A stretch of 56,759 bases of DNA from a virus. Made by a program: the position numbers and the translations under genes. The stretch lies in IMG/VR virus record IMGVR_UViG_3300016484_000735, positions 78,418 to 135,176 of that record; one strand, given 5' to 3'. Positions 1,431 to 26,179 of this stretch are shown here, piece by piece; within the stretch, counting starts at the first letter, position 1; every line of letters begins with the position of its first letter. A model generated the notes under the pieces. The model saw only the letters and a program-made list of their open reading frames with translations. It made no database searches and was not told the origin of the DNA.

Positions 1431-2012
1431 ATGAAGGTCGTGTACATTCATGGTCTGAACTCTTCAGATCGTAGCTTTGCGTACATCCTTCGGCAGCTTC
1501 CAGAACATGATGCAGTTCGTGTGAACTACAGGTCACACCAGCCGTTGAAAGATTCGATCGCCGAAGTTACACTCCAATTGCCTAAGAGGGGTCCGTTCGC
1601 GATCGTAGGGCACTCACTAGGCGGTGTGATCGGTTCGATCATCGCCACCGAACATCCGAAGGTCTCGAAGCTGATCACGATCAGCTCACCACTCGGCGGG
1701 TCGAAGGCGGCGAACATCCTCCAATGGTTGCCGAATCATCCGCCGTTGGTTCGTGACATCACCCCTCGCGCTCCGTACGTAGAACTTCTTCGTGAGTTCG
1801 AGTTCAAGATCCCGACGTTGAGCATCATCAGCACTGGCGGTTCGCTGCCAACGACGAACGAACCGAACGATTCTGTGGTGACCGTTGCAAGTCAGAAGTC
1901 GATGTTCCACGCTAAGAAGGTCGAAGTGAAAGCGAATCACTTCGAGGTCTTGGTTCACGATGACACGGTTGACCTTGTGAAGATCCACCTATTCGGAGAA
2001 GACAAAGAATGA
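1431..2012 (+). CDS. Alpha/beta hydrolase (lipase/esterase-like)
   Basis: IHGLNS oxyanion motif, GHSLGG nucleophile elbow, NDSVV acid, and ANHF histidine. Confidence 0.85.
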   Translation: MKVVYIHGLNSSDRSFAYILRQLPEHDAVRVNYRSHQPLKDSIAEVTLQLPKRGPFAIVGHSLGGVIGSIIATEHPKVSKLITISSPLGGSKAANILQWLPNHPPLVRDITPRAPYVELLREFEFKIPTLSIISTGGSLPTTNEPNDSVVTVASQKSMFHAKKVEVKANHFEVLVHDDTVDLVKIHLFGEDKE

Positions 2013-2653
2013 TCTACAGCTCGAGCCACAAGTACCATCAGGAAGCTCAGAACAGGCAACTGATGGATTACGCCCTCTGTCTTGATGACCCGAAGAAGTT
2101 CTCATCGCTCATGAAGATCAGCGGCACCCCGTTGGTGCTGAATTCAGAACAAGAGCAGATGATGGACGAGTACCACAAGTTCTCGCGAGTGATCTGCAAG
2201 CATCGGCGACGGGTAGGAGCTTCGACTGTTTCGGCTGTGTACGCGCTGTGGTTTGCTTTGATGAAGCCGCACAAGGTCGTGTCTCTGGTCGCCCCGTCAC
2301 ATGCGTGGGCGATGACCTATATCCAGCTGATCGCTGAGCTGTTCAAGTCGCTGCCGGCACACATGAAGCCGACTGTGGTTCGTAGCACGAAGCACACGAT
2401 CGAGTTCGACAACGGCTCGTCAATCTATGTCATTGCAGCAACCCCAAATGCGCTTCGCGGAATGACGATCGGTCTCCTGATCTTTGCCGACTTCGCGCAC
2501 GTCCCAGATGACGTCGCCGCTGAACTCCTGGCGGTCATCGGTCCGGCGATTGCGACCGGCACTTCGTTGGTGATGTTCTCGGATGACTCAGGAATCTCAT
2601 CAACATTCACAAGCCTCTGGAAGCACTCGCCGTATCATCGTCTCGAAGTATGA
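2009..2653 (+). CDS. Degenerate, truncated paralog of the large terminase ATPase domain
   Basis: Colinear with the N-half of the downstream TerL (LWFA, IEFDNGS, RGMTI), but Walker A GKT->GAS, Walker B DE->AD and STPNG->SDDSG; no nuclease domain. Confidence 0.75.
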   Translation: MIYSSSHKYHQEAQNRQLMDYALCLDDPKKFSSLMKISGTPLVLNSEQEQMMDEYHKFSRVICKHRRRVGASTVSAVYALWFALMKPHKVVSLVAPSHAWAMTYIQLIAELFKSLPAHMKPTVVRSTKHTIEFDNGSSIYVIAATPNALRGMTIGLLIFADFAHVPDDVAAELLAVIGPAIATGTSLVMFSDDSGISSTFTSLWKHSPYHRLEV

Positions 2654-4224
2654 AGAACCCACAACTGAAGCGTGCGCACTCCACGGATGAGTACACACCA
2701 GAGATGGTGATGGAACTCAAGAAGTGCATGGAAGATCCGGTGTACTTCATGCGGAACTATGTGAAGGTGCAGCACCCGAAGAAGGGTACGATCCCATTTG
2801 ATCTGTTCGAGTACCAAGAACGGTTCGTTCGGCACATGCAGGAGAACCGGTTCACGATCACGCTGCAACCTCGTCAGTGCGGCAAGACCGTGACCGCCGC
2901 TATGTACCTCCTGTGGTTCGCGTGCTTCAACCCAGACATGACGGTGCTGATCGCATCGAAGAACCAGAGCCACGCTCTTGAGATCGCATCACGGGTCCGG
3001 TTCGCATACGAAGAACTTCCGAACTGGCTGAAGCCTGGACTGAAGTACTACAACATGCACAAGATCGAACTCGACAACGGTTCGCGGATCATCTCTGAAG
3101 CCACGACCGAGAAGACCGGTCGTGGTCTCTCGATCTCGAAGATGTACCTCGACGAGTTGGCGTTCATCTCGCCGCGCGTTCAAGAACTGCTCTGGGCCTC
3201 GTTGGCTCCGACGCTCTCGACCGGCGGTTCCGCCATCATCTCCTCGACGCCGAACGGCGACACTGAGCTCTTTGCACAGCTCTGGCGTGGTGCGATGTCC
3301 GGTCTCGCAGCGAAGAAGAGCGACGAGGCTCAAGAAGAGCAGATCAACTTCGTCCCATTCCAAGTGAACTGGCGTGAGCATCCGGAGCGTGACGAGAAGT
3401 ACTGGCAGATGATGGTGAACATGCTGGGTCTGCTGAAGACCCGGCAAGAGGTCGGCTGCGAGTTCCTGTCTTCAGACGCGATGCTGCTGAGTTCGATGAA
3501 GCTTCAGCAGATCGTGGACAAAGATCCACTGTACGAAGACATGGGGTTCAAGTTCTGGGTTCCACAGGAGAACATCGGCGGATACGGAAAGCAGTACCTC
3601 GTCTCGTTGGATCCGGCAACTGGATCCGGGAACGACTTCACAGCGATCGAGGTGTTCGAGTTCCCGAGCCTGAAGCAGGTCGCCGAGTGGCGATCGAACG
3701 AGATCAAGATCCCGCTGCTGTACGCGAAGCTGAAGTGGATCCTGAACAAGCTCACTGAGATCAAGGGTCGTGGTCGGGCAGAGTGCCTCTGGACGTTCGA
3801 ACGGAACGGCGTTGGCGAGGCGATCGCTGCGCTGTACATGAACGATGAGAAGCAGCCAGAGTTCGCCGAACTGTACAGCGATGTTCCAGGAAAGTACGGC
3901 GTGTACACCTCTGGCAAGACGAAGATCCTCGCTTGCCTCCAGATGAAGTCATTGATCGAGAAGGTCTCGTCAGGGTTCCAACTGTACTCGAAGTCACTGC
4001 TGTTCGAACTGAAGAACTTCATCGCCAAGGGTGGTTCGTACGAGGCGAAGCAGGGCGCAACTGATGACTGTGTGATGGCGCTGGTTGGCATCACTCGTCT
4101 GATCAAGCGTCTAGCCGACTACGATGAGAACGCGTTCAAGGTTGTGAACGAATACGTTGATCCAGACTCAAACGAAGACCGGGATGACTTCGGAGGTGAC
4201 CCAGTACCATTTGCCGTCTTGTAA
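2650..4224 (+). CDS. terL: Terminase large subunit (T4 gp17-like)
   Basis: PRQCGKT Walker A, YLDELAF Walker B, SSTPNG, nuclease LDPATGSGND and DDCVMAL. Confidence 0.95.
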   Translation: MKNPQLKRAHSTDEYTPEMVMELKKCMEDPVYFMRNYVKVQHPKKGTIPFDLFEYQERFVRHMQENRFTITLQPRQCGKTVTAAMYLLWFACFNPDMTVLIASKNQSHALEIASRVRFAYEELPNWLKPGLKYYNMHKIELDNGSRIISEATTEKTGRGLSISKMYLDELAFISPRVQELLWASLAPTLSTGGSAIISSTPNGDTELFAQLWRGAMSGLAAKKSDEAQEEQINFVPFQVNWREHPERDEKYWQMMVNMLGLLKTRQEVGCEFLSSDAMLLSSMKLQQIVDKDPLYEDMGFKFWVPQENIGGYGKQYLVSLDPATGSGNDFTAIEVFEFPSLKQVAEWRSNEIKIPLLYAKLKWILNKLTEIKGRGRAECLWTFERNGVGEAIAALYMNDEKQPEFAELYSDVPGKYGVYTSGKTKILACLQMKSLIEKVSSGFQLYSKSLLFELKNFIAKGGSYEAKQGATDDCVMALVGITRLIKRLADYDENAFKVVNEYVDPDSNEDRDDFGGDPVPFAVL

Positions 4225-4283
4225 AGCCCCGATCCCATAAATAGGCGGACGTACGATCAAGTCCTTTCCTATAGGGGTCAATA

Positions 4284-6770
4284 ATGCTTCAAGACGGTCT
4301 GCTTCTTGCCGATTCATCGGTTGCAGTGAACTTTCAGATTCAGAACGGGACGGCGTTGCCGAGCACCGGCCTGAACGTTGGCGAGCTGTTCTTCCTCACT
4401 GCCGGTACCTCAACAGAGATCGGCCTTTACGTGTTCGACGGGTCCTCCTGGATCCGTTCGACGAACACGATCTCCTCTTACACGCTCTCCGGCGACCTCG
4501 TCGGCACGATTGACGGCGGCACTGACGCGGTGTCACTGGCAACTGTGAATGGCACTGTCGGCACGTTCGGCGCTGCGAACAAGGCTGCTTCGTTCACTGT
4601 GAACGGCAAGGGCCTGATCACCGCAGCGGCAGAGGCCCCGATTGCGATTGCTGGCTCACAGATCACGTCTGGTGTGATCAGCGACGCTCAGATCTCTCAG
4701 ACGTCGGTGACACAGCACCAAGCGCACATCGCGATCGATGGCTCACAAGTGGTGTCTGGCTCGTTGCCGAATGCACGTATTTCATTTAACTCTGTCGCCC
4801 AACACCAGTCGTCGCTGTGGTTCGACGCGTCGCAGATCACCACCGGCACATTCGATGCTGCCCGCATTGGGCAGACCGGTGTAACACGTCACGAAGCCGC
4901 CCTGACGATCACTGAGAATCAGATCCCGAACTCGACGATCCTCGCTCGTGTCGCAGACAACGAGACGATCACCGGTTCCTGGACGTTCAACACCGGCGTC
5001 GTCGGTGCTACCCCGACTGCGGCATCGCACCTCGCTACGAAGCAGTACGTCGACAACGCAGTGAACGGCCTGTCGTGGAAGCACTCGGTGAAGGTCGGTA
5101 CTACGGCGAACATCACCCTGTCTGGCACGCAGACGATCGACGGTGTCGCAGTCGTTGCTGGGAACCGTGTCCTGGTCAAGGATCAAACGACAGCATCCGA
5201 GAACGGCGTGTACGTCGTGGCAGCTGGCGCTTGGGCACGTTCTACCGACTTCGACGAAGTGTCGCCGATCGACGAGATCAACAGCGCTGCTGTGTTCATT
5301 GAGCAAGGCGCGACGCAAGCTGACACTGGCTGGACTCAGACCGCTACCGTCACGACCGTTGGCTCGGACGCGATCTCGTTCACTCAGTTCTCGGCATCTG
5401 GCGCGTACGTTGGTGGCGCCGGTCTCACGCTGTCTGGGAACACGTTCAACGTTGGTACAGCGTCGGCATCGCGCATCGTCGTGAACGTCGACAACATCGA
5501 CCTCGCTACCGTCACTGATTCTGGCGCAGGTTCGTTCAAGAAGATCACCGTTGACGGGTACGGTCGTGTCACTGGCACCACCGCAGTCGTTGCTGCTGAC
5601 ATCACCGGCCTCTCGCCGTACGCTGCCGGCACTGGTCTCACTCTGACCTCTGGTACGTTCGCTCTCAGCACCCTCGCTGATGCTGGCGCTGGCTCGTTCC
5701 TGAAGATCACTCGTGACTCATACGGTCGTGTGTCTGGTACGACCGCAGTTGCAGCATCTGACATCCTCGGTCTCTCGCCGTACGCTGCTGGTACCGGCCT
5801 CACACTGGCATCTGGCACATTCTCGCTGAACACGCTGGCTGACTCTGGCGCCGGTTCGTTCCTGAAGATCACTCGTGACACGTACGGTCGTGTGTCTGGC
5901 ACTGCTGCCGTGACTACGGCTGACATCACCGCTCTCGTTGGCTCGACGTACGTTGACGTCGCCGGTGACACGATGTCAGGTGCCCTGACTGTGAACAGCA
6001 CGATCACCGCGTCTGGCGCCCTGTCCGCTGCATCGGTTGCTGTGACTAGCAACTCTGGTCCAGCGAACGGTCTGTTCCTGCCAGCAACGAACGCTCTCGG
6101 CATCACGACGAACAGCCTTGAGCGTGTTCGTGTTGACGCTTCTGGCAACGTTGGTGTTGGCACCACGAATCCGGGTTCGAAGCTGCATGTTGCCGGCGGC
6201 GGGATCGCCATTACTAACAGCGCATCAACGGCGTCCCAAACTGCTTACGCAGGGAATGGTACAACAGTCGGGACTTCTGATTTCGTAGTCGGAATGGACT
6301 CGGCGGGCACCGGCGTTCTGTATCAACGCGCCAACAGCCCGATCGTGATCTCGGTGAATGGCGCTGAACGTCTGCGCTTTGGTTCCGATGGTGCGAACTA
6401 CTTCACCGGCACCACGAACTTCAACGGTTCGATCATCGTTGGCACTCACATGTCGACCGGCGGCGGCAGCACCCCGGTGAACACTCTGACGACAACTGCG
6501 ATCGACACGTTCGCCGCAGCAACGTACCGTTCAGCGAAGTACTTCGTGCAGGTCACCGACCAGACGAACTCGCAGTACCACGTTGTCGAGATCTCTGTGA
6601 TGCACGACGGCACGAACGTGTACAAGGTCGAGTACGGTGAGATGACCTCGGCGGCGTCGCTCGGTACGTTCGACGCATCGCTGAGCTCTGGCACTGTCTC
6701 GCTGACGTTCACCGCATCCGCACTCTCTTCGAAGGCAGTGAAGTTCAGCCGAACTCTGATCGCAGTGTAA
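4284..6770 (+). CDS. Tail fibre / fibre-hub virion protein
   Basis: ATKQYVD, TLSGTQTIDGV..RVLVKDQT..ENGVY, ITVDGYGRVT repeats, ERVRVDASGNVG and a C-terminal DTF..YRSAKY domain, all typical of phage fibres. Late promoter at 4238. Confidence 0.85.
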   Translation: MLQDGLLLADSSVAVNFQIQNGTALPSTGLNVGELFFLTAGTSTEIGLYVFDGSSWIRSTNTISSYTLSGDLVGTIDGGTDAVSLATVNGTVGTFGAANKAASFTVNGKGLITAAAEAPIAIAGSQITSGVISDAQISQTSVTQHQAHIAIDGSQVVSGSLPNARISFNSVAQHQSSLWFDASQITTGTFDAARIGQTGVTRHEAALTITENQIPNSTILARVADNETITGSWTFNTGVVGATPTAASHLATKQYVDNAVNGLSWKHSVKVGTTANITLSGTQTIDGVAVVAGNRVLVKDQTTASENGVYVVAAGAWARSTDFDEVSPIDEINSAAVFIEQGATQADTGWTQTATVTTVGSDAISFTQFSASGAYVGGAGLTLSGNTFNVGTASASRIVVNVDNIDLATVTDSGAGSFKKITVDGYGRVTGTTAVVAADITGLSPYAAGTGLTLTSGTFALSTLADAGAGSFLKITRDSYGRVSGTTAVAASDILGLSPYAAGTGLTLASGTFSLNTLADSGAGSFLKITRDTYGRVSGTAAVTTADITALVGSTYVDVAGDTMSGALTVNSTITASGALSAASVAVTSNSGPANGLFLPATNALGITTNSLERVRVDASGNVGVGTTNPGSKLHVAGGGIAITNSASTASQTAYAGNGTTVGTSDFVVGMDSAGTGVLYQRANSPIVISVNGAERLRFGSDGANYFTGTTNFNGSIIVGTHMSTGGGSTPVNTLTTTAIDTFAAATYRSAKYFVQVTDQTNSQYHVVEISVMHDGTNVYKVEYGEMTSAASLGTFDASLSSGTVSLTFTASALSSKAVKFSRTLIAV
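5517..5930 (+). repeat. In-frame 162-bp (54-aa) tandem repeat, about 2.5 copies
   Basis: D-x-GAGSF units start at 5517, 5679 and 5841. Confidence 0.85.
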
Positions 6771-6778
6771 CAATTCTC

Positions 6779-6801
6779 GGGAGGCTTCGGCCTCCCCTTT
6801 T
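6779..6801 (+). terminator. Rho-independent terminator / attenuator hairpin
   Basis: GGGAGGC-TTCG-GCCTCCC followed by CTTTT. Confidence 0.8.
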
Positions 6802-6819
6802 GACGGATAGGGAAGTCAA

Positions 6820-9567
6820 ATGGCTAACAATGTGAACTTCAAGGTCAAGAACGGCCTTGTCATCGGGGGCGATGCGTACCTGAACAACGCTTCGTATCTC
6901 CACGGGAAGTTGCTGAACGGCACGGACACTCGGATGTTCGGCATTAACTCAGCGAACACCCTGTACATCGGATCGATCGACACCGCCACTGGCGGCGATT
7001 GGATCTTCATCAACGGCGCTGAGCGGATGCGGATCAATGCTGCTGGCACCGTCCGCATCAACACGGCGTCGAACCTGAACACAAACGCTCAGTTCAGTGT
7101 ATACGCTTCCGACCAGAAGGTCATGGAGCTGTACTCAGGCGGGTCGTTGACTCGTCTGATGCTAGCGAACGACAACAACCTGAACACAATCGATTCGAAC
7201 AACGGCGCGCTCACGTTCAACTACAATCCTGGCACGCTGACTGAAGCCGGTCGATTCACCGTCGGTGGCGCGTTCACGGTTGGTCGCACCTCACAGTACG
7301 CAACGTACGACATCGCTTCGTTCGAGAAGAGCGCGAATGCCGATTACGGTATCTCGATCAGCAACCAGAACTCGACGGCTGGCTCGTACGCCCGTCTGAC
7401 GCTTGGCGCGTACGGTGCTGACTGGAACCTGCGCGTTGGTGCCGCCGCAACGAACAACACGGCGTTCACGATTGGACGTGCGGCAGTCGAGATGCTGCGC
7501 ATCACCTCAGCTGGCAACGTTGGCATCGGGACCTCAAACCCAAGCGAGCAGCTGCATCTTGGGCGCGCCACGTACCCAACGCTGAAACTCGAAGAAACTA
7601 CGACCGGTAATGTGGTTCTTCTGCAGCACCATTCTGGCGCCAGCGAGACTCAACTGACGGTGGTTGGCGCGTACCCGCTTGTGTTCAAAACTTCCAACAT
7701 CGAGCGTCTGCGGATCTCGGCGGCAGGCAACGTTGGCATCAAGAATATTTCGCCGTCGCATACTGTTGACATCGGGCAATCAACAGATGCAACAAACGAA
7801 CTCTACGTGAATGCCGCAGCATCTGGTGTTGCCCGCGTGTATGCGAACACGTGGGGTACTTCGTCTGCAGCGCTCGTTGCGAACAACTCTTCAAGCGCAA
7901 CTGGCGACGGTGTTCCAGCGAACACATTGGGTATCGCTTTCAACGGCGGCCTCCCAGCAACGTTCGTTGTGAATGCTGTAGAGCGGATGCGCATTGACTC
8001 ATCGGGCAACGTCGGTGTTGGCATCACGCCGAAGACTTGGGGTAGCGACTACCGCGCCGTGGAACTTGGCACCTACGGCCGTCTGTACTCGTCGTCCAAT
8101 GGGAAGACCGGCTTCGCAGCTAATGCGACATTCAACGGCACGAACTGGATTGCTGGCATCACAACCGTAGGTTCGCTGTATGAACAGCCGTTGGACGGAA
8201 GTGGTCACGTCTTCTCCACAGCGGCCAGCACCACGGCCGGCGCGACGATGACGTTCACAGAGCGGATGCGCATCGACTCGTCTGGCAACGTCGGCATCGG
8301 GACGTCGGCACCGACTCGCGCGCTTCATGTTCGCGGCACAGCTGCAAGCGCATCCATCGAAAACACCAGCACTGCAGCTGGGGACTTTGTCGATCTTGCT
8401 ATTGTTGGCAATGACACTACCGGCCGATTCTCAGCATACGGATCTCAACACAGCTCACGAGCCAATCAAGTATGGTTGAATGCTAATACAAGTTCTTCGC
8501 TTGTACTTGGGACCAACAATACAGAGCGGGTGCGCATCACATCGGCTGGCGATGTTGGCATTGGCACTGGATCACCGCAACGGAAGCTCCACGTGGTCGG
8601 CGATGCCGGCATCGCCGTGTCTGATACCGCAACCGGTGCAATCACAACTCTTGCGGCGACAACTACCGTCACGTCGATTGATTGCTACACCACGAATGTT
8701 GCTGGTCAAGCCTTTGTGGTTCGCACGAACAGTACTGGTGGTACTGGTACAGCAGAGCGGTTCCGCATCACATCTACAGGTCAGATCGGTATCAACACCT
8801 CGCTGCCGTCATTTGACTTCGATCTGCAGAAATCACAGAATGCTGCATCGGTGATGCGCGTGTACAACGGGAACACCGGCGCTTCTGCATCCTCGGTGAT
8901 CGTTGCGCAGTCTGACACAGTGACGTTGAACATGTTCGCGAACGGTTCTGGGAACACTCTCGGATCGGTCGCATCGCTGGCTGGTATTCAGGTCACCACG
9001 AACACACCGTTCGGGATCTGGACGAACAACGCTGAACGCATTCGAATCACGGCTTCGTCTGGCTACATTGGCATCAACGGGAATACGAACGGTGTAGTTG
9101 CTGGGCTGCAACACCAACTGGCTCTGTATCACGCTGGTGCGAGCTCAGTGTACGGCATCGGCATCCGTGCGCTGAACAACTCGACGACCACACAGGCCCT
9201 GACGTTCGCGAACGCGTCTGATGCCCAGGTCGGTTGTGTCTCTGTCACCGCTTCGGCAACCACGTACTCGACGACTTCCGATCGCCGCCTGAAGGAGAAC
9301 GTCCAGCCGGCTGGATCGTTCGGTTCGAAGATCGATCAGATCGAGGTCGTCTCGTTTGATTGGAAGGCGGATGGGAAGCATCAAGAGGCCGGGTTCATCG
9401 CTCAAGACCTGTACAAGGTCGCTCCTGATGCTGTCCACGTCGGCGATGCTGATGACGTTGAGGTGCTGAAGCACACCTGGGGTGTCGATGCTTCGAAGCT
9501 CGTACCGATGCTGATCAAGGAAATCCAAGAGCTGCGTGCACGCGTCGCTGCCCTCGAAACCAAGTAA
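6820..9567 (+). CDS. Tail fibre with repeated ERMRI-x-SSGNVGIG modules and C-terminal intramolecular chaperone (peptidase S74-like)
   Basis: Many TERMRIDSSGNVGIG repeats; TSDRRLKEN..GFIAQD..LIKEIQEL at the C-terminus. Confidence 0.9.
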   Translation: MANNVNFKVKNGLVIGGDAYLNNASYLHGKLLNGTDTRMFGINSANTLYIGSIDTATGGDWIFINGAERMRINAAGTVRINTASNLNTNAQFSVYASDQKVMELYSGGSLTRLMLANDNNLNTIDSNNGALTFNYNPGTLTEAGRFTVGGAFTVGRTSQYATYDIASFEKSANADYGISISNQNSTAGSYARLTLGAYGADWNLRVGAAATNNTAFTIGRAAVEMLRITSAGNVGIGTSNPSEQLHLGRATYPTLKLEETTTGNVVLLQHHSGASETQLTVVGAYPLVFKTSNIERLRISAAGNVGIKNISPSHTVDIGQSTDATNELYVNAAASGVARVYANTWGTSSAALVANNSSSATGDGVPANTLGIAFNGGLPATFVVNAVERMRIDSSGNVGVGITPKTWGSDYRAVELGTYGRLYSSSNGKTGFAANATFNGTNWIAGITTVGSLYEQPLDGSGHVFSTAASTTAGATMTFTERMRIDSSGNVGIGTSAPTRALHVRGTAASASIENTSTAAGDFVDLAIVGNDTTGRFSAYGSQHSSRANQVWLNANTSSSLVLGTNNTERVRITSAGDVGIGTGSPQRKLHVVGDAGIAVSDTATGAITTLAATTTVTSIDCYTTNVAGQAFVVRTNSTGGTGTAERFRITSTGQIGINTSLPSFDFDLQKSQNAASVMRVYNGNTGASASSVIVAQSDTVTLNMFANGSGNTLGSVASLAGIQVTTNTPFGIWTNNAERIRITASSGYIGINGNTNGVVAGLQHQLALYHAGASSVYGIGIRALNNSTTTQALTFANASDAQVGCVSVTASATTYSTTSDRRLKENVQPAGSFGSKIDQIEVVSFDWKADGKHQEAGFIAQDLYKVAPDAVHVGDADDVEVLKHTWGVDASKLVPMLIKEIQELRARVAALETK

Positions 9568-9576
9568 GGAAACAAA

Positions 9577-11220
9577 ATGGCTACTAACAAGGACTTCAAG
9601 GTCTCACAAGGGAACATCGTTGGTAACGGGTTCCGTGCTGCACAAGGCGTACCGTCGAACGGCGACGGTTCTCTGAATGGGTACGCATTTGGGGTGGACG
9701 GCGACACTGGTCTGTTCTCGCCTGGCTCAGGTGGCGGGAACGGTGCCCTCGCATTCTTCACGAACAACACCGAACGCGTTCGCCTCACAGCCGGCGGCCA
9801 GTTCGGTATCGGTACTTCGGCACCGTCGCAGCTTCTGACCGTCGTTGGCACCACTCCGTACATCCGCCTGGAAGACGCGTCTGGAAGCGCGAAGCGTCTT
9901 GACCTGTCGGTCGACTCCACCGGTGTTGCGACGATCGCGGCGAACCAGTCGGCTCAGCAGCTCGTGTTCCAGACAGTTGGCGCTGAGCGGATGCGCATTG
10001 ACTCATCGGGCAACGTCGGTGTTGGTGCGGTCCCTGTAGCTGCGCTCAACGGTGTCCTGGTTCATCGCTCTTCTGGTACTGCGAACATTGTCGTGAACTC
10101 CACCGATGCGACGATGTACTCCAGCATCCGCCTGAACAACGGGAACGCAGCGCCAGCCGCGGTCGGCTGTGCTCTGCACCACATGGGTGCGTCGTACCCG
10201 GCAGGTTCTGAGTACGCTCCAGACGGCTCATCGCTTACCGGCTTCGGCAGTAACGGCTTGTTCCTGAACGCATGGCATTCAACCGGGACGGTAAAGATCA
10301 CCACGGCCAGCGTCGAACGGATGCGCATTGATTCGTCGGGTAACGTCGGTGTTGGCACGACAGCGCCAGGCGCAAAGCTTGACGTGAATGGGCAGCTTCG
10401 TGCCCCAACAGTGATTCTGGCACGGAACGATTCTGGCAATGAGGGCGGTGAGATCGTCTTCAACGAGCCGAATAACAACCTCCGAGCTTTTGCTCTTGAC
10501 TGCTACGGCGCGAACGTTCTGAATGGATCTCAAACGTCTTCATTCCGGTTGTTCTCGACGACAGCGGCAACTACCCCAGTGAGTACTGAGCTGCTTTCGG
10601 TGTCCATGGCTGGGCAGCTGAAGATGAAGGTTGGTCCGATCTCGGTGTACTCGCCGACCACTACTACCGTCGGCGGTATCATGGGCATCGAGAACGCTGC
10701 CGATACCTTCACCGTCGACACGAATAAGGTCCTGTCTCATTACGGCCTCACTTGGAAGAGTCTCTCAGACAACGCTGAACTCCAAGCGCATCTTTCGTCG
10801 TACGGTGGCCTGAACTTCTACGCGGCTGGTGCTCTGCGCCTCAAGGTCGAGACGAACGGCGCCGTCCGTCCTGGCACCACACAAGCACAGACACTTGGCT
10901 CTGCGGCGTACCGCTGGTCGACGATCTATTCTGACCAAGCGCTGAACGTTTCGTCGGATGAACGTCTGAAGCACGACATTCAAGACATCACCGAAGTTGA
11001 GGCTCGCGTTGCGACGCGTCTGAAGAGCCTCGTGAAGACGTATCGTCTGAATGTGGATCCTTCGAAGAAGCAAGTCGGTGTGATCGCGCAAGAGGTCGTG
11101 GCGGCATTCGCCGCCGAAGGCTTGGATGCTCTTGATTACTCAATCGTATCGATGGGCGAAGACGGAATGTACGCGGTCTGCTACGATCCGCTGATCATGT
11201 TCATGTTCTCTTCACTCTGA
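9577..11220 (+). CDS. Tail fibre with C-terminal S74-like chaperone
   Basis: ERMRIDSSGNVG repeats; SSDERLK..GVIAQEV. Confidence 0.9.
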   Translation: MATNKDFKVSQGNIVGNGFRAAQGVPSNGDGSLNGYAFGVDGDTGLFSPGSGGGNGALAFFTNNTERVRLTAGGQFGIGTSAPSQLLTVVGTTPYIRLEDASGSAKRLDLSVDSTGVATIAANQSAQQLVFQTVGAERMRIDSSGNVGVGAVPVAALNGVLVHRSSGTANIVVNSTDATMYSSIRLNNGNAAPAAVGCALHHMGASYPAGSEYAPDGSSLTGFGSNGLFLNAWHSTGTVKITTASVERMRIDSSGNVGVGTTAPGAKLDVNGQLRAPTVILARNDSGNEGGEIVFNEPNNNLRAFALDCYGANVLNGSQTSSFRLFSTTAATTPVSTELLSVSMAGQLKMKVGPISVYSPTTTTVGGIMGIENAADTFTVDTNKVLSHYGLTWKSLSDNAELQAHLSSYGGLNFYAAGALRLKVETNGAVRPGTTQAQTLGSAAYRWSTIYSDQALNVSSDERLKHDIQDITEVEARVATRLKSLVKTYRLNVDPSKKQVGVIAQEVVAAFAAEGLDALDYSIVSMGEDGMYAVCYDPLIMFMFSSL

Positions 11221-11234
11221 TTTAAGGGCACAAA

Positions 11235-13646
11235 ATGGCTACTAACAAGGACTTCAAGGTTTCACAAGGGAACATCGTTGGCAACGGGTTCCGTGCCGCA
11301 CAAGGAACACCGACGAACGCAGATCTGTCGCTGAACGGGTACGCGTTCGGTGGTGATGGCGATACGGGGATGTTCTCGCCGGGCTCTGGCGGGTCTAACG
11401 GTGTTCTCGCGTTCTTCACGAATAACACCGAACGTGTTCGACTCGCCGCCAACGGACAGCTCGGCATCGGTACATCGTCACCAGCGTACCCGCTGCACGT
11501 CGAAGGTGCAACTGTTGACGACGTCCTGCGAGTGAATGCTACGAACAACCCATCGATCTCGATCGCTCGTGGTGGTGTTCGACAGATGTACCTGCAAGCA
11601 ACTGCATCTGGTGCTGCGCTGAACGTCGAAACGGCAGTGCCGTTCGGGATCTTCACGAACAATCTCGAGCGGATGCGCATCGACGCTACTGGGAACATCG
11701 GGGTCGGTACATCAAACCCGCTCGCGGCTGTAGAACTGAACTCAGCGAACGTGGCTGGTGATGACAACCGTGGAAACCTGTACGTTCGTACGTCTACTGC
11801 GTATGCTGCTGACGTTGGCGGCAAGATCACGCTTGGCGGGTTCTACAACGGCGCGGCCCATTTCCCGTTCGCCGGTGTGTCTGGGCGCAAGGCGAATGCT
11901 ACGGCGAGCGATGTATCTGGGTACTTGCAGTTCTTGACGACGACCTCAGCTGGAGCTCTGACCGAACGGATGCGGATCGATGCGTCTGGGAACGTTGGCG
12001 TCGGCACTGCATCACCGGCTGCTCGCCTGCACATGCTGGTAGCCGACGGGGCGAGGGTCGACATTGCCAAGTTTGAACAGACCGGGCAAGGATCATTGAC
12101 TGTTCAGGGGCAGTGGGGTAATGCGGATCTTGGGACGAACGCCGGAACACTGCTGTATTCGGCTGGACCGTCGTACAACATCGGATTCCGGAACGGGACC
12201 AGCGGTGCAGCTAGCCTCGTTCTGAACAACGGGAATGTCGCGATCGCGCACTTCGAGAACGGTCTGCAGGCCCCAGCTCGTCTGTCCGTTCAGGAACACG
12301 CCACTGGATTCGCAGGCATCGGCGTTCGTAGCACACGCGCTGGCACTTCTGGATCTGCTCAGCGTGCTTACACGACGACAATCATTCAGGCTTCTGGTGC
12401 GAACTACAGCTACGATGGTTCTGTAGCCATCAAGTTCCATCACAACGATTTCCACAACCTCAGCGGCGACCTGTCATTCTGGACTAAGAACGAGTCTAAC
12501 ACTCAGTCTGAGCGGATGCGTATCACGGCGGCCGGATACGTCGGCATCGGCACCGCCTCGCCTGGGTACGCTCTCGACGTGAACGGGAACGGGCGGTTCT
12601 CGTCGTTCCTGTTCCTTGGGCGGAATGATAACTCGAATGAAGGCGGTCAGCTCGACTTCGCTGAGCCGAACAACAACTCGACGGCTTGGTCACTCGACGT
12701 GTACGGTGGCACGAATCCGGCCTTCCGGATCCTGGAGACCGTGAGCAGCGTCACGTCCGAACGGGTCCGTATCGTTGCCGGCGGGAAGATGGCGATCGGC
12801 GCAACAACCACGTACTCTGAACTCACAGTGAACAACGGCTCAGCATCTGGCTCGCTGTCTCTGTCGCCAGTGAGTGGTGGCGGTGGTGTGTCGTATATCC
12901 TGATGGGGAACGCCAACGGCGGTGGCGCGACTGGCCCAACTATGATCGCCTCGGCGAACCGTACGTTGCAGTTCGGCGTTGGTACTTCGTTCACGAGTCG
13001 TGATGGCGGCACGTTCACCGAGTTCATGCGCATCGACTCTGGCGGCAACGTCGGTATCGGCATTTCGGTCCCATCGGCTCGTCTGCATGTTGCCGGTGCA
13101 TCAGAAGCCATTCGGATGCAGCACGACAATGCATACATCAGCGGATACAACAGTGCGAACACAGTTCGAAACGGGTACTTGCAGTTCTCTGGCGCTGGCA
13201 CGACCTTGGCAGCTGATGCTGGTGGTTCGGCGAACCTGGTGTTTTCGACCAATAGCGCGAACCGCCTCATCATCGAAGTCGGTGGCGCCGTTCGTCCTGG
13301 TGCCACACAAGCTCAGACACTCGGTTCAGCAACATACCGGTGGTCGACGATCTACTCTGACCAAGCTCTGAACGTTTCGTCGGATGAGCGTCTGAAGGCA
13401 GACGTTCAAGACCTTACTGAAGCCGAGACCCGGGTGGCGAAGCGCTTGAAGGGTCTTGTGAAGACGTATCGTCTGCTCGCACGTCCAGACAAGAAGCGCA
13501 TCGGTGTGATCGCTCAAGAGGTCGTGGCGGCGTTCGAAGCCGAAGGTCTGGACGCTCTTGACTACGAGGTTGTCTCGATGGGTGAAGACGGGATGTACGC
13601 GGTTTGCTACGAACCGCTGACCTTGTTCATCGTCTCCGCGATGTAA
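11235..13646 (+). CDS. Tail fibre with C-terminal S74-like chaperone; paralog of 9577-11220
   Basis: Near-identical N-terminus (MATNKDFKVSQGNIVGNGFRAAQG) and C-terminal chaperone domain. Confidence 0.9.
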   Translation: MATNKDFKVSQGNIVGNGFRAAQGTPTNADLSLNGYAFGGDGDTGMFSPGSGGSNGVLAFFTNNTERVRLAANGQLGIGTSSPAYPLHVEGATVDDVLRVNATNNPSISIARGGVRQMYLQATASGAALNVETAVPFGIFTNNLERMRIDATGNIGVGTSNPLAAVELNSANVAGDDNRGNLYVRTSTAYAADVGGKITLGGFYNGAAHFPFAGVSGRKANATASDVSGYLQFLTTTSAGALTERMRIDASGNVGVGTASPAARLHMLVADGARVDIAKFEQTGQGSLTVQGQWGNADLGTNAGTLLYSAGPSYNIGFRNGTSGAASLVLNNGNVAIAHFENGLQAPARLSVQEHATGFAGIGVRSTRAGTSGSAQRAYTTTIIQASGANYSYDGSVAIKFHHNDFHNLSGDLSFWTKNESNTQSERMRITAAGYVGIGTASPGYALDVNGNGRFSSFLFLGRNDNSNEGGQLDFAEPNNNSTAWSLDVYGGTNPAFRILETVSSVTSERVRIVAGGKMAIGATTTYSELTVNNGSASGSLSLSPVSGGGGVSYILMGNANGGGATGPTMIASANRTLQFGVGTSFTSRDGGTFTEFMRIDSGGNVGIGISVPSARLHVAGASEAIRMQHDNAYISGYNSANTVRNGYLQFSGAGTTLAADAGGSANLVFSTNSANRLIIEVGGAVRPGATQAQTLGSATYRWSTIYSDQALNVSSDERLKADVQDLTEAETRVAKRLKGLVKTYRLLARPDKKRIGVIAQEVVAAFEAEGLDALDYEVVSMGEDGMYAVCYEPLTLFIVSAM

Positions 13647-13652: not shown

Positions 13653-13695
13653 AACCTAGGAACTGCTACGCGTGGTTCCTAGGTTGTGGTACAGT
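13653..13695 (+). promoter_or_regulatory. AACCTAGGAAC/GTTCCTAGGTT inverted repeat overlapping a promoter (-10 TACAGT)
   Basis: Perfect 11-bp arms at 13653-13663 and 13675-13685; TGnTACAGT ending 13695; ATG 6 nt later. Confidence 0.6.
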
Positions 13696-13701
13696 ACGCG
13701 C

Positions 13702-13962
13702 ATGAACACACCTGGATACATGGTGTTCTGGTTCCGCCAGGGACCAGAATGCGAGTACTTCGAACCGTCGCAGATGACGGAAGCCCTGGCTCTGATGAAC
13801 GAACTCCGGAAGGATCCTTCGAACGAGTTCGTCACGTTCGCCTCACAAGACCCGAACTCGGTTGGCAAGCCGGGCGTGGATTCGATCGAGAACGGCAAGA
13901 CTCCGGACGGTCATCCGTACGAGTGGTCGAAGGCAGGGCGCGCTGGCAAGATGCGCCGGTAA
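13702..13962 (+). CDS. Hypothetical protein
   Basis: ORF directly after a -10 element, likely leaderless. Confidence 0.7.
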   Translation: MNTPGYMVFWFRQGPECEYFEPSQMTEALALMNELRKDPSNEFVTFASQDPNSVGKPGVDSIENGKTPDGHPYEWSKAGRAGKMRR

Positions 13963-13983
13963 TAAGACGCGCGTACGTGCGTC

Positions 13984-14043
13984 GTTACAGGTCCAGGGTC
14001 GTTACAATTTCGCTGGTACAGGTTCCCAGGTTCGTGTTATGAT
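13984..14043 (+). promoter_or_regulatory. Paired-GTTACA promoter, copy 1
   Basis: GTTACA at 13984 and 14001; TGnTATGAT -10 at 14038. Confidence 0.75.
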
Positions 14044-14069
14044 GAGAACATCGAATCGTGGAGAGCAAC

Positions 14070-14495
14070 ATGTACATCCGGTTCCTGAAGTCTGGTGAGA
14101 TCGATACGTATGCCGAGTCCCTCTCGCCCGAGATGGCGCAGGATCGGCAGTGGACCGATCGCTGGAACTGGAGGGACTTCGCAACGGTCGAGAAGATCGC
14201 TGCGCACCTCACCGAGAAGCTCGGGTACCTGTGGTTGCCAGTCGACCGAGGCGAATCGACCTCGCCGCGATACGATGTGATGGTCGCTCCCCGCGTCGGT
14301 GACAAGGTCTCGCGCGGTTTCAACGGCGACTACTACCCCGATGGCGTGATCGAGAAGATCACGCCGAAGTTCCAGATCAAGACCTCTGGTGGTCACACCT
14401 TCCGCCGCGTGAAGAACACGAGCACGTGGATCATGAGCGGCGGTACCTGGGGCCTCGTGAGCGGTCACATCGACGAACGTAACCCGCACTTCTGA
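14070..14495 (+). CDS. Hypothetical protein
   Basis: GGAG RBS; downstream of promoter copy 1. Confidence 0.75.
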   Translation: MYIRFLKSGEIDTYAESLSPEMAQDRQWTDRWNWRDFATVEKIAAHLTEKLGYLWLPVDRGESTSPRYDVMVAPRVGDKVSRGFNGDYYPDGVIEKITPKFQIKTSGGHTFRRVKNTSTWIMSGGTWGLVSGHIDERNPHF

Positions 14496-19010: not shown

Positions 19011-19016
19011 ACAACC

Positions 19017-21446: not shown

Positions 21447-21461
21447 GTTCGTTCCAATGTG

Positions 21462-21498: not shown

Positions 21499-21518
21499 GC
21501 TGTCTGAAAGGAGACACT

Positions 21519-22640: not shown

Positions 22641-22662
22641 CGGCCATCCATAGGAGAATCAC

Positions 22663-22851
22663 ATGTCGCAAGAAACCGCAATCGTCATCAGCCTGGTCCA
22701 CGGTGGCTACGTTCTGAACACCCCGTCGGAAGACGCTGATGGTCGCACCGAGGTGTTCACCTCGACCGCGAAGCTGCTGAAGGCTGTTCGCACCGCCGTC
22801 GAAGAGAACACTCTGGTCGTGAAGACCAAGGGTGACGCTGACGCCGAGTAA
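22663..22851 (+). CDS. Hypothetical protein
   Basis: AGGAGA RBS; good codon usage. Confidence 0.7.
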   Translation: MSQETAIVISLVHGGYVLNTPSEDADGRTEVFTSTAKLLKAVRTAVEENTLVVKTKGDADAE

Positions 22852-22870
22852 GCCACTGAGCTGAACTGAG

Positions 22871-22893
22871 AACGGGGACTTCGGTCCCCGTTT
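22871..22893 (+). terminator. Terminator hairpin
   Basis: AACGGGGAC-TTCG-GTCCCCGTT followed by T. Confidence 0.75.
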
Positions 22894-22899
22894 GCGTCT

Positions 22900-23145: not shown

Positions 23146-23603
23146 TCTCACTCTTCGCCATCGACGAACAGAACCTCGAAACCGAACTGCCGAGCTTGTT
23201 CGAGATGATGGAGGCTGAGATCGCGAAGGCCGAACCACTATTCGAAATCGACGGCGAACGTCTCGAGAAGCTCGCCCGCGACCTGCCGAAGCACCAAGCC
23301 CACTACTCTGGTCTCCGTCAAGACATGAAGCACTTGATGCGCTGGCTCGAGAACTGGAAGTCCAAGGAAGAAGCGATCCTCCTGAAGAACTACCAGAAGG
23401 GTCAGCGTGCCCTCACCGCCAGCGACACGAAGACGCTGATCAACGGTGAGAAGAGCATCATCGAAGCGAACCAGATGATCATCGTGGCAAGCCAGCTGTA
23501 CATGAAGCTCGATGACATCGTCGAGTGCTTCAAGCAAATGGGCTGGATGATCGGGAACATCACGAAGCTCCGAGTGGCAGAACTCGGAGACATCATTGTC
23601 TAA
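23142..23603 (+). CDS. uvsY: Recombination mediator UvsY-like
   Basis: Helical 153-aa protein with RALT..D...ING..I and KQMGWMIGNITKLR; located between uvsX and uvsW. Confidence 0.75.
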   Translation: MISLFAIDEQNLETELPSLFEMMEAEIAKAEPLFEIDGERLEKLARDLPKHQAHYSGLRQDMKHLMRWLENWKSKEEAILLKNYQKGQRALTASDTKTLINGEKSIIEANQMIIVASQLYMKLDDIVECFKQMGWMIGNITKLRVAELGDIIV

Positions 23604-24348
23604 GGGAACCATGAACATCCTGCGCTACATTCAAGAACAGATCGGGTCGTACTGTGATGAACTGTACTTCGAGCCGATGGACCATCTGCTGGTAGAACGT
23701 CTGAAGTCGTACATCGGCGGTGAGCTTCGCCAGCTGATGGAGAATGGCCAGATCTACGACTACAGCGTGAAAAACCCGCAGTTCGTCGTTGACGAGAAAA
23801 CCGATCGCATGATGGTTCAGGTCGATGTGGCGTTCCAAGAACACGCCGGCAGTCCGTTCGTGTACACGCACGTTCAGCTGAGTAACGCGAACCCACCGAT
23901 CTCGGCTGCCACTGCACCAGTGAACACTGGTACGAACGGAAACGTCCCGACGAACCGTGGATACAACGCGAACGGTCAAGGCACGATCAGTGCTGGCATG
24001 ATCAGTGCTGGCACGATCACCGCACCGACGGCGAACGTCACGTACAACGCATCCACGGGGATGTTCCACGTGAACACGATGTCACTGAATGCTGTGAACG
24101 TTGGCGTCACCTCGACTCCGACACAAGCTCAAACGGCTGACCTCCCGCCGATCTCGTGGTCATGCTTCGACGAACACCATCGCGTGATCCGCATGGTCCT
24201 GGAACCAGAAGGCTCGATCAGCGCGCACGATGCATTCCGTCTCACGATGATGATGAACGCATCCGCTGCGGCACCGTACTCGTTCAACCCGTACCTGTAC
24301 GTGAAGAAGCACTCGCTGGAACGTCACTTCAAGTTCAGCCAAGTATGA
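23596..24348 (+). CDS. Protein with an N-terminal tail-sheath C-terminal-like domain
   Basis: YIQEQI...LYFEPMD......LKSYI...LRQL...GQIYDYSV resembles the sheath C-terminal FEPND...IYDF.V segment. Confidence 0.5.
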   Translation: MSKGTMNILRYIQEQIGSYCDELYFEPMDHLLVERLKSYIGGELRQLMENGQIYDYSVKNPQFVVDEKTDRMMVQVDVAFQEHAGSPFVYTHVQLSNANPPISAATAPVNTGTNGNVPTNRGYNANGQGTISAGMISAGTITAPTANVTYNASTGMFHVNTMSLNAVNVGVTSTPTQAQTADLPPISWSCFDEHHRVIRMVLEPEGSISAHDAFRLTMMMNASAAAPYSFNPYLYVKKHSLERHFKFSQV

Positions 24349-25760
24349 GCAAGAAGGCTTACATCCACGTTCACGACGAGGTGTACTGCACGGTTGCAGG
24401 CCTTGCTCCAGAACACCAAGAGTTCCTGGAGAACAAGTTCGCGATCATGGTCGACGGCGCGTTCTTCATGCCGGCGTACAAGCTCGGCCGTTGGGACGGC
24501 AAGATCAGGTTCTTCGAGAAGACCGGTAAGGTGTTCTGGCGTCTGCTGGACGAGATCACCCCGTACATCGAGGGCTGGGGTTACGACCTCGAGATCGAAG
24601 ACCACCGGACCGAGACGTCGCTCGTCCAAGCCCGCATCGATGCCGAGTGGTTCCGTCGTGTCCCAGGCGTCGAACTCAAGGTGAACCTTCGTCCGTATCA
24701 GGTCGACTCGGTGAACGCCGCGCTGGCCGCCGGTTCAGGGTTCGTAGTTGCTGCGACCGGTTCCGGCAAGACCTGGATGGTCGCAGGTCTGTGCTCAGTT
24801 CTGAACTCCGAGCAGAAGCGCTGCATCGTGATCGTCCCGTCGTCCGACCTCGTTGAGCAGACTGCAGCAACGTTCCGGCTCGGGATGCTGGACTGCGGGA
24901 TCTACAGCGGGTCGAAGAAGGACATCCATCACCTCACTGTTGTCGCGACCTGGCAGGCTCTGCAGAACAACCCACGCATCGTTGAAGACTTCGATGCAGT
25001 GATCATCGATGAAGCGCACGGTGCCACGGCGAAGACGATCGGTGAGCTGATGAACGTCCACGGTCGGAACCTCGCGTACCGATTCGGCTTCACTGGTACG
25101 ATGCCGAAGGCGAAGATCGATCAGATGACCCTGCGTGGTTCGATCGGTGAAGTACTGTTCAGCATCACTGCTGCCGAACTGATGGAGATGGGGTACCTCG
25201 CGAAGCTCGAGATCGAACCGCTCCAGATCATCGACGAAGCGATCGAGGAAGAGTTCCCAGACTACTCCAGCGAGAAGACGTTCCTGTCGAAGTCGCCGAA
25301 GCGTCTGGACCTGCTCGCTGATCTGATCATCGCGAAGGCTGGCACGTACGGGAACACGCTGGTGCTCGTGAACAGCATCAAGCAGGGTAAGCAGCTTCAG
25401 AAGCTCATCAAGGACTCGGTGTTCCTGCACGGTGCTGACGACAACGACGTCCGCGCTGAGTGGTACTCGATGTTCGAGAAGCGCGATGATCTGATCGTGA
25501 TCGCTACCAGCGGTATCGCTTCAACGGGAATTTCTATCGATAGGGTTTTCGCGCTCGTTCTCATTGATGCTGGCAAGAGCTTCGTGAAATGCATCCAGTC
25601 GATTGGTCGCGGTCTCCGCAAGGGTCACGACAAGGACTTCGTGCACTGCGTCGACATCCACTCGAATCTGAAGTGGTCGATGAAGCACTTCCGCGAGCGG
25701 AACAAGTATTACAAGGAAGCGCGGTACGCCGTGACGAAGGTCGTGAAGGTCAAGATCTGA
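24345..25760 (+). CDS. uvsW: SF2 DNA helicase UvsW
   Basis: WDGKIRFF, LRPYQ, ATGSGKT, IDEAH, FGFTGT, QSIGRGLR. Confidence 0.9.
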   Translation: MSKKAYIHVHDEVYCTVAGLAPEHQEFLENKFAIMVDGAFFMPAYKLGRWDGKIRFFEKTGKVFWRLLDEITPYIEGWGYDLEIEDHRTETSLVQARIDAEWFRRVPGVELKVNLRPYQVDSVNAALAAGSGFVVAATGSGKTWMVAGLCSVLNSEQKRCIVIVPSSDLVEQTAATFRLGMLDCGIYSGSKKDIHHLTVVATWQALQNNPRIVEDFDAVIIDEAHGATAKTIGELMNVHGRNLAYRFGFTGTMPKAKIDQMTLRGSIGEVLFSITAAELMEMGYLAKLEIEPLQIIDEAIEEEFPDYSSEKTFLSKSPKRLDLLADLIIAKAGTYGNTLVLVNSIKQGKQLQKLIKDSVFLHGADDNDVRAEWYSMFEKRDDLIVIATSGIASTGISIDRVFALVLIDAGKSFVKCIQSIGRGLRKGHDKDFVHCVDIHSNLKWSMKHFRERNKYYKEARYAVTKVVKVKI

Positions 25761-26179
25761 TGCAGAAGCCTCTAATCGTACACATCATGGATGCCGACAA
25801 GCCGAACGCGAACAACCGAGTGTACCCTCGTAAGGAGCTCGAACGAGCGATCCTCGAGGTGAATCAAGACTCGGCGAAGCAGCGTCGAGTGTTCGGTCAA
25901 GTCGGGATGCCACAACGTGGTCTAGAGCTCGAGAAGCTCGCGTTCATCACTGGCGAACTTCAGCTCGACGAGAATGGTGCTCTGACCGGCACCGTCGCTT
26001 GGCTTGACACACCGGCCGGCAAGGAGGCAAAAGCGATGTACGAAGAAGCCGATGCTGCCGGAAATCAGCCGTGGTCATTCCGAACGGCGGGTGCAGGCAA
26101 GACACGAGTAGTGAACGGCGTCACCGAGATCTACGACTTCAAGATCTCATCTATCAACATGGTCCTGAACGGAGCCTAA
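25760..26179 (+). CDS. Degenerate T4 gp21-like prohead protease paralog
   Basis: N.NNRVYP..ELERA and LDTPAGK retained; GELxHP->GQVGMP and SSRGxG->RTAGAG. Confidence 0.65.
   Translation: MQKPLIVHIMDADKPNANNRVYPRKELERAILEVNQDSAKQRRVFGQVGMPQRGLELEKLAFITGELQLDENGALTGTVAWLDTPAGKEAKAMYEEADAAGNQPWSFRTAGAGKTRVVNGVTEIYDFKISSINMVLNGA

Follow-up and report, generated by a model that had tools for sequence, protein, structure and literature searches.

The stretch of DNA analysed here, referred to below as the window, is 56,759 nucleotides long and comprises bases 78418-135176, i.e., the end, of the 135,176-bp IMG/VR viral contig IMGVR_UViG_3300016484_000735, which is estimated to be 43% complete. The contig originates from an uncultured jumbo T4-like phage, whose nearest cultured relatives by the large terminase (TerL) are the Xanthomonas jumbo phages XacN1, XaC1, and Xoo-sp13. 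Three open reading frames (ORFs) of the window resemble virion morphogenesis proteins (Table 1): a paralogue of the TerL ATPase domain without catalytic residues (the pseudo-ATPase, P0001) directly upstream of the genuine TerL gene (P0002), a fusion protein with a sheath-like N-terminal domain (P0003) between uvsY and uvsW, and a relative of the gp21 prohead protease without its active-site residues (the pseudoprotease, P0004/P0014) downstream of uvsW. A small ORF with a predicted IscA-like fold (P0005) precedes uvsY. An earlier reading of the same DNA (the original prediction) had described the three focal ORFs as intact and translationally coupled, and this was confirmed: the pseudo-ATPase gene has ATGA overlaps with both flanking genes (2009-2012 and 2650-2653), the P0003 gene has an ATGA overlap with uvsW (24345-24348), and the pseudoprotease gene is joined to uvsW by a TGATG overlap (25758-25762). 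The sequences of the compared relatives are labelled below with L-numbers (L010, L041, etc.) and G-numbers (G001, G002, and G005).

The relationship of P0001 to TerL is supported by a match to Pfam Terminase_6N (30 bits, with a cut-off of 22 bits), by matches to PHROG TerL families as the sole PHROG hits (best PHROG 5989, E 2.3e-25), and by a match of the P0001 family profile to T4 gp17 ATPase structures (E 8e-43), while the identity between P0001 and the adjacent TerL is 28%. As the original prediction stated, the Walker residues are gone. At Walker A the RQCGKT of TerL corresponds to RRVGAST in P0001, with GAS in place of GKT and the Lys lost, and at Walker B and the catalytic site LDEL corresponds to FADF, with the DE pair lost. 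P0001 also contains no nuclease domain, the ORF extending no farther than the ATPase domain, and Terminase_6C is found only in the downstream TerL. The 12 other members of the family read G[I/M/T/F/L][S/T]T at Walker A, and none of the 13 has the Lys or the D-E pair. Residues R67, G70, and G151 are invariant in both pseudo-ATPase alignments, Q48 is invariant or nearly so, and R150 is invariant in alignment A1 and kept in 11 of the 13 members; the P-loop Arg is retained across the members. The R150-G151 pair is located ten residues ahead of Walker B, at an Arg of T4 gp17 in the alignment. The trans-arginine finger R139 of P74-26 TerL was mapped at such a position, where T4 also has an Arg (PMC5727402).

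Orthologues of the pseudo-ATPase are located directly upstream of TerL in XaC1 (XaC1_353, annotated as "large terminase protein") and in Xoo-sp13 (Xoosp13_242, annotated as "terminase small subunit"), and ten IMG/VR relatives also have such an ORF. The paralogues group together in a maximum-likelihood tree (support 66/98), with branches approximately 10-20 times longer than those of TerL and a topology that loosely mirrors the TerL tree, which points to one old duplication of the TerL ATPase domain. Approximately ten relatives with a 50-74% identical TerL have no pseudo-ATPase, and the hydrolase gene there abuts TerL directly. Moreover, sister TerLs differ in this respect (present with L035 and absent with L036; present with L027 and absent with L028), and a 251-kb relative, 70% complete, has a single TerL-like gene. 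The gene is thus accessory or dispensable and has been lost more than once among close relatives. At the same time it is not decaying. The Nei-Gojobori ratio of nonsynonymous to synonymous substitution rates (dN/dS) is 0.116 for P0001 against an 88%-identical relative of 214 amino acids (aa), with 29 nonsynonymous and 58 synonymous changes; other pairs of pseudo-ATPases give 0.12-0.36, and TerL gives 0.08-0.14.

Two other explanations of the TerL-like ORF were rejected. P0001 is not a split or intron-separated exon of TerL, since the downstream TerL is complete, and TerL matches of approximately 2.3 kb in relatives, which at first sight suggested introns, consist of the paralogue plus TerL. 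A separate observation concerns the genuine terminase: in L037 (2-772, plus strand), L038, and L039 (4001-4879), the TerL ORF is normal to approximately residue 270 and then continues into unrelated sequence that starts with Cys-Leu/Val-Ser right after the conserved QE-V-x motif, which looks like an intein within the ATPase domain. The TerL ORF of G005 likewise breaks off at approximately residue 270 into an intein-start-like sequence.

The pseudoprotease matches the head maturation protease family PHROG 207 (E 1.4e-13) and the phage's own gp21 (BLASTP E 2e-11), and its Pfam score of 24.8 bits falls just under the cut-off of 27 bits. The absence of the catalytic His and Ser noted in the original prediction was verified. 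The His motif G-E-L-N-H-P of gp21 reads F-G-Q-V-G-M-P, with Met at the position of T4 His85 (alignment with the 5JBL chain), and the Ser motif V-S-S-R-G, which in T4 is the Ser140 motif G-x-S-S-R-G, is replaced by S-F-R-T-A-G (FRTAGAG), i.e., FRT for SSR. All six metagenomic homologues (55-59% identical, 121-138 aa) keep FGQVGMP and F-R-[P/T]-[A/C]-G, and the divergent members, namely those of L042 (36% identity), G005 (133-aa ORF), and L011 (143-aa ORF), are also without the His. The residue at this position is Met in the seven close members and L042, and Cys or Pro in two divergent members. The invariant parts of the family sequences include the blocks flanking the former active site, and the gp21 extensions of approximately 30 residues at the N-terminus and approximately 55 residues at the C-terminus are missing.

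All members of the pseudoprotease family are encoded downstream of uvsW, directly in the window, L041, L042, L011, and G005, and with one intervening 138-aa ORF (8552-8968) in L010. The family is absent from G002 (97% complete) and XaC1; scanning the relatives' loci with the P0014 sequence alone gave no match, and the pseudoprotease alignment was needed as the query. The dN/dS value is 0.23 for the L041/L010 pair, compared with 0.078 for UvsW, and the rate is uneven: identity to the window protein is 62% in L041 (65% for UvsW) and 36% in L042 (80% for UvsW). The intact gp21 and sheath genes that the original prediction expected elsewhere in the genome were both found upstream of the window. 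The genuine gp21 is a 202-aa S77 protease with both His and Ser (contig positions 48948-49556), and its gene adjoins likely portal, scaffold, and capsid ORFs, assigned by size and order only; the genuine sheath protein has 612 aa (contig positions 64984-66822).

The original prediction described the third ORF as an isolated C-terminal domain of the sheath protein. This holds for residues 1-92, whereas the start is likely ATG 23611 and not TTG 23596, the protein has two domains, and its conserved C-terminal domain (C-domain) had been missed. The purine-rich AAGGGAA preceding ATG 23611 may serve as a ribosome-binding site, and the corresponding database protein (P0007) is 245 aa long. Residues 1-92 are predicted to fold as helix-helix-four strands. 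The protein's own match to the Pfam sheath family is below threshold (E 9e-4), and the profile of its family matches the C-termini of proteins of 419-1190 aa with E from 7e-12 to 8e-9; both long matched proteins scanned (640 and 1190 aa) carry PF17482, standalone PF17482 proteins were also matched, and one family member has a precomputed PF17482 match. Structural comparison with VIA gave Z of 5-7.8 to many sheath, gp25, and TssE chains, the best being 5li2 (7.8), 2ia7 (7.6), TssE 6gj1_D (6.9), 3hxl (6.6), and IraD 6od1_B (6.2); these values are middling taken alone, and the family profile adds support for sheath. Foldseek matched the same residues to T4 gp25 with probability 1.0. P0003 was rejected as the gp25 of this phage, since a true GPW_gp25 gene is present elsewhere on the contig. 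The remaining sheath domains are missing from P0003, the rest of which is a disordered linker and an unrelated domain.

This C-domain is the better conserved part of the protein. In most relatives it occurs alone, in proteins of approximately 100-150 aa, encoded between uvsY and uvsW wherever the context is readable (L010, L014, and L041). The family is widespread: the full-length profile (A3) found 117 representative clusters with E up to 1e-10, and most of the top matches listed cover the C-domain (alignment A5) only, with the motif YVKKHxLERHF. When P0003 is compared with a relative 78% identical to it (80% in the aligned columns), the whole protein has a dN/dS of 0.22; the value is 0.32 in the N-terminal domain, 0.31 in the linker, and 0.00 in the C-domain, where 21 synonymous and no nonsynonymous changes were counted. 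Given that the C-domain is found alone in relatives and that its dN/dS is 0.00 against 0.32, the C-domain is the core and the sheath-like domain is the add-on, acquired in a particular lineage by a conserved recombination-cluster protein. The AF2 model of the C-domain (pLDDT 93.7) has the order beta-beta-alpha-alpha-beta; comparison with the PDB yielded no sequence match, a best Foldseek E of 1.1, and a best VIA Z of 3.5, and the ESM Atlas held no useful neighbour. A tblastn search of cultured phages with P0003 gave no match, and the XaC1 genes at the equivalent positions (XaC1_359, 360, and 362) are unrelated to P0003 and P0004. Separately, many metagenomic proteins of 105-145 aa (P0125, P0129, P0135, and P0147) consist of the sheath C-terminal domain PF17482 alone; the single context examined for them is a 1.3-kb contig. 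Either genuine small genes or pieces of larger sheath genes may be the source of these proteins.

For P0005, which the original prediction called a Cys-less IscA, the ESM Atlas model of the exact protein (pLDDT 0.82) aligns over all 81 residues with a viral ErpA-family (PF01521) cluster at TM 0.82, and the C-terminal Cys-x-Cys is indeed absent; however, two Cys are present, neither of them conserved among homologues, and Pfam gave no match even at E 10. Homologues precede uvsY in L041, L010, and L014. A fourth case of lost chemistry and kept fold is a weak but plausible reading of this predicted structure.

The elements were originally proposed to form a single set, and the comparison of genomes does not bear this out, since each of them has its own phyletic pattern. 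G002 has the pseudo-ATPase, no pseudoprotease, and a C-domain-only protein without the sheath-like domain. Of the elements, the complete genome of XaC1 has the pseudo-ATPase only. G001 lacks the pseudo-ATPase and has a C-domain-only protein and a weak pseudoprotease match, and G005 has the pseudoprotease, with neither the sheath-like fusion nor a C-domain protein found in its 141 kb (40% complete). The elements differ in age, neighbours, and rate, the pseudoprotease and the sheath-like fusion are limited to a narrower clade than the pseudo-ATPase, and the sheath-like domain is an add-on to another protein. A common system of pseudo-ATPase, pseudoprotease, and sheath-like fusion is therefore not supported.

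Table 1. Genes and domains of the window, with the focal elements first (positions are those of the window).
Feature	Position	Strand	Evidence or remarks
TerL-ATPase-domain paralogue without catalytic residues, P0001, 214 aa	2009..2653	+	Homology, motif loss, tree, dN/dS
Genuine large terminase TerL, P0002, 524 aa	2650..4224	+	Walker A RQCGKT, LDE, and RNaseH-like nuclease domain present
gp21 (peptidase S77)-like pseudoprotease, P0004/P0014, 139 aa	25760..26179	+	Homology, motif loss, synteny
P0003 N-terminal domain, residues 1-92, sheath C-terminal/gp25 "handshake" fold	23611..23886	+	Profile and fold matches
P0003 linker, residues 93-176, low-complexity, predicted disordered	23887..24138	+	pLDDT 25-47; length and sequence variable in the family
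P0003 C-terminal domain, residues 177-245, motif YVKKHSLERHF	24139..24348	+	Conserved family core
Conserved protein with predicted IscA/ErpA-like fold, P0005, 81 aa	22900..23145	+	First gene after the hairpin at ~22866-22890
Alpha/beta-hydrolase, 193 aa	1431..2012	+	Pfam Abhydrolase_6, E 5.6e-7; left neighbour, conserved
Four large ORFs	4284-13646	+	First matches tail-fibre/virion-structural PHROG families; other three with S74 chaperone domains
UvsY-like recombination mediator, 153 aa	23142..23603	+	PHROG 231, E 4.4e-10
UvsW helicase, 471 aa from ATG 24345	24345..25760	+	Pfam ResIII, DEAD, Helicase_C, UvsW_N
Conserved protein of unknown function, 169 aa	26184..26693	+	PHROG 11279, E 2.9e-16; right neighbour, synteny in L010, L011, L042
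Gene order: alpha/beta hydrolase, TerL-like ORF, TerL	1431-4224	+	
Gene order downstream of the large ORFs: gp32, UvsX, small ORF, hairpin, IscA-like ORF, UvsY, P0003, UvsW		+	
Gene order after UvsW: gp21-like ORF, 169-aa ORF, GH108 lysozyme, RNR		+	

Among the neighbouring genes (Table 1), the hydrolase gene to the left has dN/dS of 0.044 against L062. By their matches, the four large ORFs following TerL look like tail-fibre genes. The last three (6820-9567, 9577-11220, and 11235-13646, encoding 915, 547, and 803 aa) all have a Peptidase_S74 intramolecular chaperone domain at the C-terminus, and the trio looks like an array of tail-fibre or tail-spike paralogues inserted between TerL and the gp32-UvsX block; XaC1 is without the insert. 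Farther downstream lies a conserved 62-aa ORF with the motif LVHGGYVL (22663-22851), which L042 shares. Between this ORF and the IscA-like gene, immediately ahead of the latter, is a GC-rich hairpin (GGGGAC-TTCG-GTCCCC, then GTTT) that may be an operon boundary. The T4 late-promoter motif TATAAATA does not occur in the whole window, and sigma-70 promoter and terminator scans of the window performed no better than on shuffled sequence. The gene content of the block just downstream of uvsW differs among relatives. The close relative L010 encodes Acb1 (anti-CBASS 1, PF23474) at 13694-14164, within the same block, after RNR and glutaredoxin and approximately 4 kb downstream; Pfam gave no match for 31569-32030, the single ORF scanned in the corresponding region of the window.

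The original prediction had also held that in the enzyme copies the loss falls on catalytic residues while fold motifs and reading frames persist, and the motifs and dN/dS values characterize both as genuine, conserved, and selectively maintained derivatives of TerL and gp21 without catalytic function; P0003 likewise contains a maintained derivative of the sheath/gp25 domain. With dN/dS of 0.12-0.32, diverged homologues, and fold matches, the three families are neither neutrally decaying nor devoid of homologues, and their folds are confirmed. The data show that the proteins are homologous to their counterparts, that catalytic residues have been lost, that the sequences are conserved under purifying selection and in syntenic positions, and that the elements differ in phyletic pattern; all binding partners and functions considered below are inferred. 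Since the chemistry is lost while fold and selection are retained, we favour, with a probability of about 0.55, a reading of the elements as three or four independent exaptations, in which morphogenesis or housekeeping folds without chemistry would be kept as binding or regulatory modules.

For the pseudo-ATPase, which would stem from one old duplication and occupies the position of the T4 small terminase gene, the position, the translational coupling, and the retention of a candidate trans-Arg together with the loss of the cis-acting catalytic residues suggest a non-hydrolysing partner of TerL, an accessory subunit that would dock on TerL and modulate assembly of the motor or firing of its ATPase. 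The protein encoded between uvsY and uvsW would have as its core a new-fold domain of approximately 70 aa belonging to the UvsX/UvsY/UvsW module, to which one sublineage would have added a sheath/gp25-type domain via a disordered linker; by analogy with E. coli IraD, which uses the same fold, the sheath-like fusion is probably a protein-protein adaptor. The pseudoprotease keeps the protease core and would be unable to cleave, and the invariant blocks around its former active site suggest that binding in the groove is retained, so that it may bind gp21-type substrates or partners.

Several observations weigh against this interpretation. Conflict genes would explain the rapid divergence and patchy loss of the pseudo-ATPase, as well as the unevenly paced evolution of the pseudoprotease, no less well than housekeeping modulators would. 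The P0001 of the window is the most divergent member of its family; it falls approximately 45 aa short of most others and has a degraded C-motif (FSDDSG versus STPNG). The placement of R150 in a trans-arginine-finger type of position comes from spacing and the T4 gp17 alignment and not from a structure. The location of the pseudoprotease in the replication and recombination cluster, apart from the head genes, is odd for an assembly regulator.

That one or more of the proteins bind immune sensors as anti-defence decoys, as the original prediction proposed, or as shields appears unlikely. The corresponding enzymes are sensed by bacteria: the ATPase domain of TerL is recognised by Avs2 and Upx (PMC13601566), and, according to a preprint, CBASS CD-NTases are switched on when a T4 gp21-type prohead protease cleaves their activation loop (PMC12991175), which lends the idea some plausibility for the pseudoprotease. 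In its sharpest form, the dead protease would cover the protease-sensitive CD-NTase activation loop or another protease sensor, thereby blocking cleavage by the real gp21, and the TerL copy, having lost its nucleotide site, would act without tripping ATP-reading Avs sensors. The fast evolution, repeated loss, and patchy distribution of the families, the invariant blocks of the pseudoprotease, and the presence of Acb1 in the same block of L010 are consistent with such a role. However, Avs sensors fire upon binding, so that a look-alike triggers rather than titrates them, as T4 vs.8 does in activating EcAvs2, and EcAvs2, in binding the ATPase domain of TerL, contacts both the ATP held by the terminase and a bridging ATP (PMC13601566), while P0001 is without the Lys and Glu needed to hold ATP. 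Both points weaken a decoy for Avs, although the EcAvs2 data allow motif loss to be an escape from Avs detection. In addition, no sheath sensor is known yet (PMC13581612), the elements do not co-occur, and the promoter-motif scans gave no support for early timing. A combination of the two ideas is very unlikely: the pseudoprotease of the recombination operon would be an anti-CBASS substrate trap occupying CD-NTase activation loops, so that the prohead protease could not fire the CD-NTases, and the pseudo-ATPase would be a subunit of the TerL motor "blind" to Avs2. If true, "blind" or "blunt" versions of the most conserved phage enzymes would be an evolved answer to pattern-recognition immunity.

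Interaction domains separated from oligomeric machines are a classic source of dominant-negative effects, and the proteins might accordingly be weapons or timers, either poisoning the packaging motor, prohead protease, or sheath of related co-infecting phages (superinfection exclusion) or slowing assembly of the phage itself. In favour of this, the families are accessory and evolve fast, and the fold matches indicate a domain of the type that mediates the handshakes between sheath subunits; still, we regard this explanation as distinctly unlikely, for the phage's own TerL, gp21, and sheath would also be poisoned unless discriminated, and no such specificity is visible. The pseudo-ATPase is moreover coupled to the phage's own TerL, so both are probably made together, and the pseudoprotease is without the terminal extensions, which in gp21-type proteases are thought to target the enzyme to the prohead. 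It is also very improbable that the pseudo-ATPase is the small terminase (TerS) of this clade, a TerL-derived replacement that recognises DNA and activates TerL. Its gene does sit in the TerS position, immediately before TerL and translationally coupled with it, its Xoo-sp13 orthologue bears a small-terminase annotation, and a gp16-type TerS (PF11053) was not detected in the contig, XaC1, or Xoo-sp13; but one Pfam model cannot exclude a TerS elsewhere, TerS proteins being too divergent, P0001 has no DNA-binding or oligomerisation signature, and an essential TerS should not be missing from phages whose TerL is 50-74% identical and abuts the hydrolase gene. Functionless remnants of duplications, finally, might be suspected from the lost catalytic residues and from the truncated, very divergent pseudo-ATPase of the window. 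This scarcely credible alternative is largely refuted by dN/dS (pseudo-ATPase 0.12, pseudoprotease 0.23, P0003 0.22 overall and 0.00 in the C-domain), and ORFs that stay intact across 1-3 substitutions per site, together with conserved start-stop overlaps and synteny, point the same way.

The observation is thus real and somewhat unusual, a single coordinated decoy set is not supported, and the functions put forward for the binding modules are putative. Pseudoenzymes are well known in cells and hardly catalogued among phage morphogenesis proteins; our full-text literature searches yielded no account of a catalytically dead paralogue of either TerL or gp21, and a survey of jumbo phages mentions neither (PMC7824862). 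TerL and the prohead protease are among the most conserved phage enzymes, and each has a dead paralogue family under purifying selection. The same two enzymes are read by bacterial immunity, with Avs1-3 and Upx sensing the terminase and CBASS sensing protease activity. The families have clear residue-level signatures, and the pseudo-ATPase is carried by the cultured phages XaC1 and Xoo-sp13, which makes it experimentally tractable. In addition, the C-domain of P0003 is a small, confidently folded domain, with no fold match in the PDB, that belongs to the UvsY-UvsW module in a large clade of uncultured phages.

Among known systems, T4 gp16 (PF11053) is a non-catalytic regulator of the gp17 ATPase, and its gene, like that of P0001, is located immediately upstream of TerL and coupled to it; the two proteins have no sequence relationship, and P0001 is missing in close relatives. 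T4 vs.8 (NP_049732) resembles the pseudo-ATPase as a standalone TerL-ATPase-related protein of approximately 215 aa without a nuclease domain (PMC13601566). It keeps Walker A GKS and Walker B IDE, triggers EcAvs2, and is encoded far from gene 17, whereas the pseudo-ATPase family has lost these motifs and is encoded directly upstream of TerL; the hhalign comparison between them is not significant (E 0.71). The A-type Fe-S carriers IscA and ErpA (PF01521) are alike to P0005 in predicted fold, and their pattern of three cluster-ligating Cys is not found in it. The pseudoprotease shares with T4 gp21 (S77, PDB 5JBL) the elements N-x-N-G-R-x-Y-P, G-x-x-x-[H]-P, L-x-T-P-x-G, and G-x-G, and differs from it in length (approximately 139 versus 202-212 aa) and in location, its gene following uvsW, whereas that of gp21 lies between the portal and scaffold genes. 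The gp25 and TssE sheath initiators and E. coli IraD are standalone domains of the same "handshake" fold as the N-terminal domain of P0003, IraD being an example of its reuse as a regulator outside contractile machines, whereas in P0003 this domain is fused via a disordered linker to an unrelated conserved domain and encoded within a recombination cluster.

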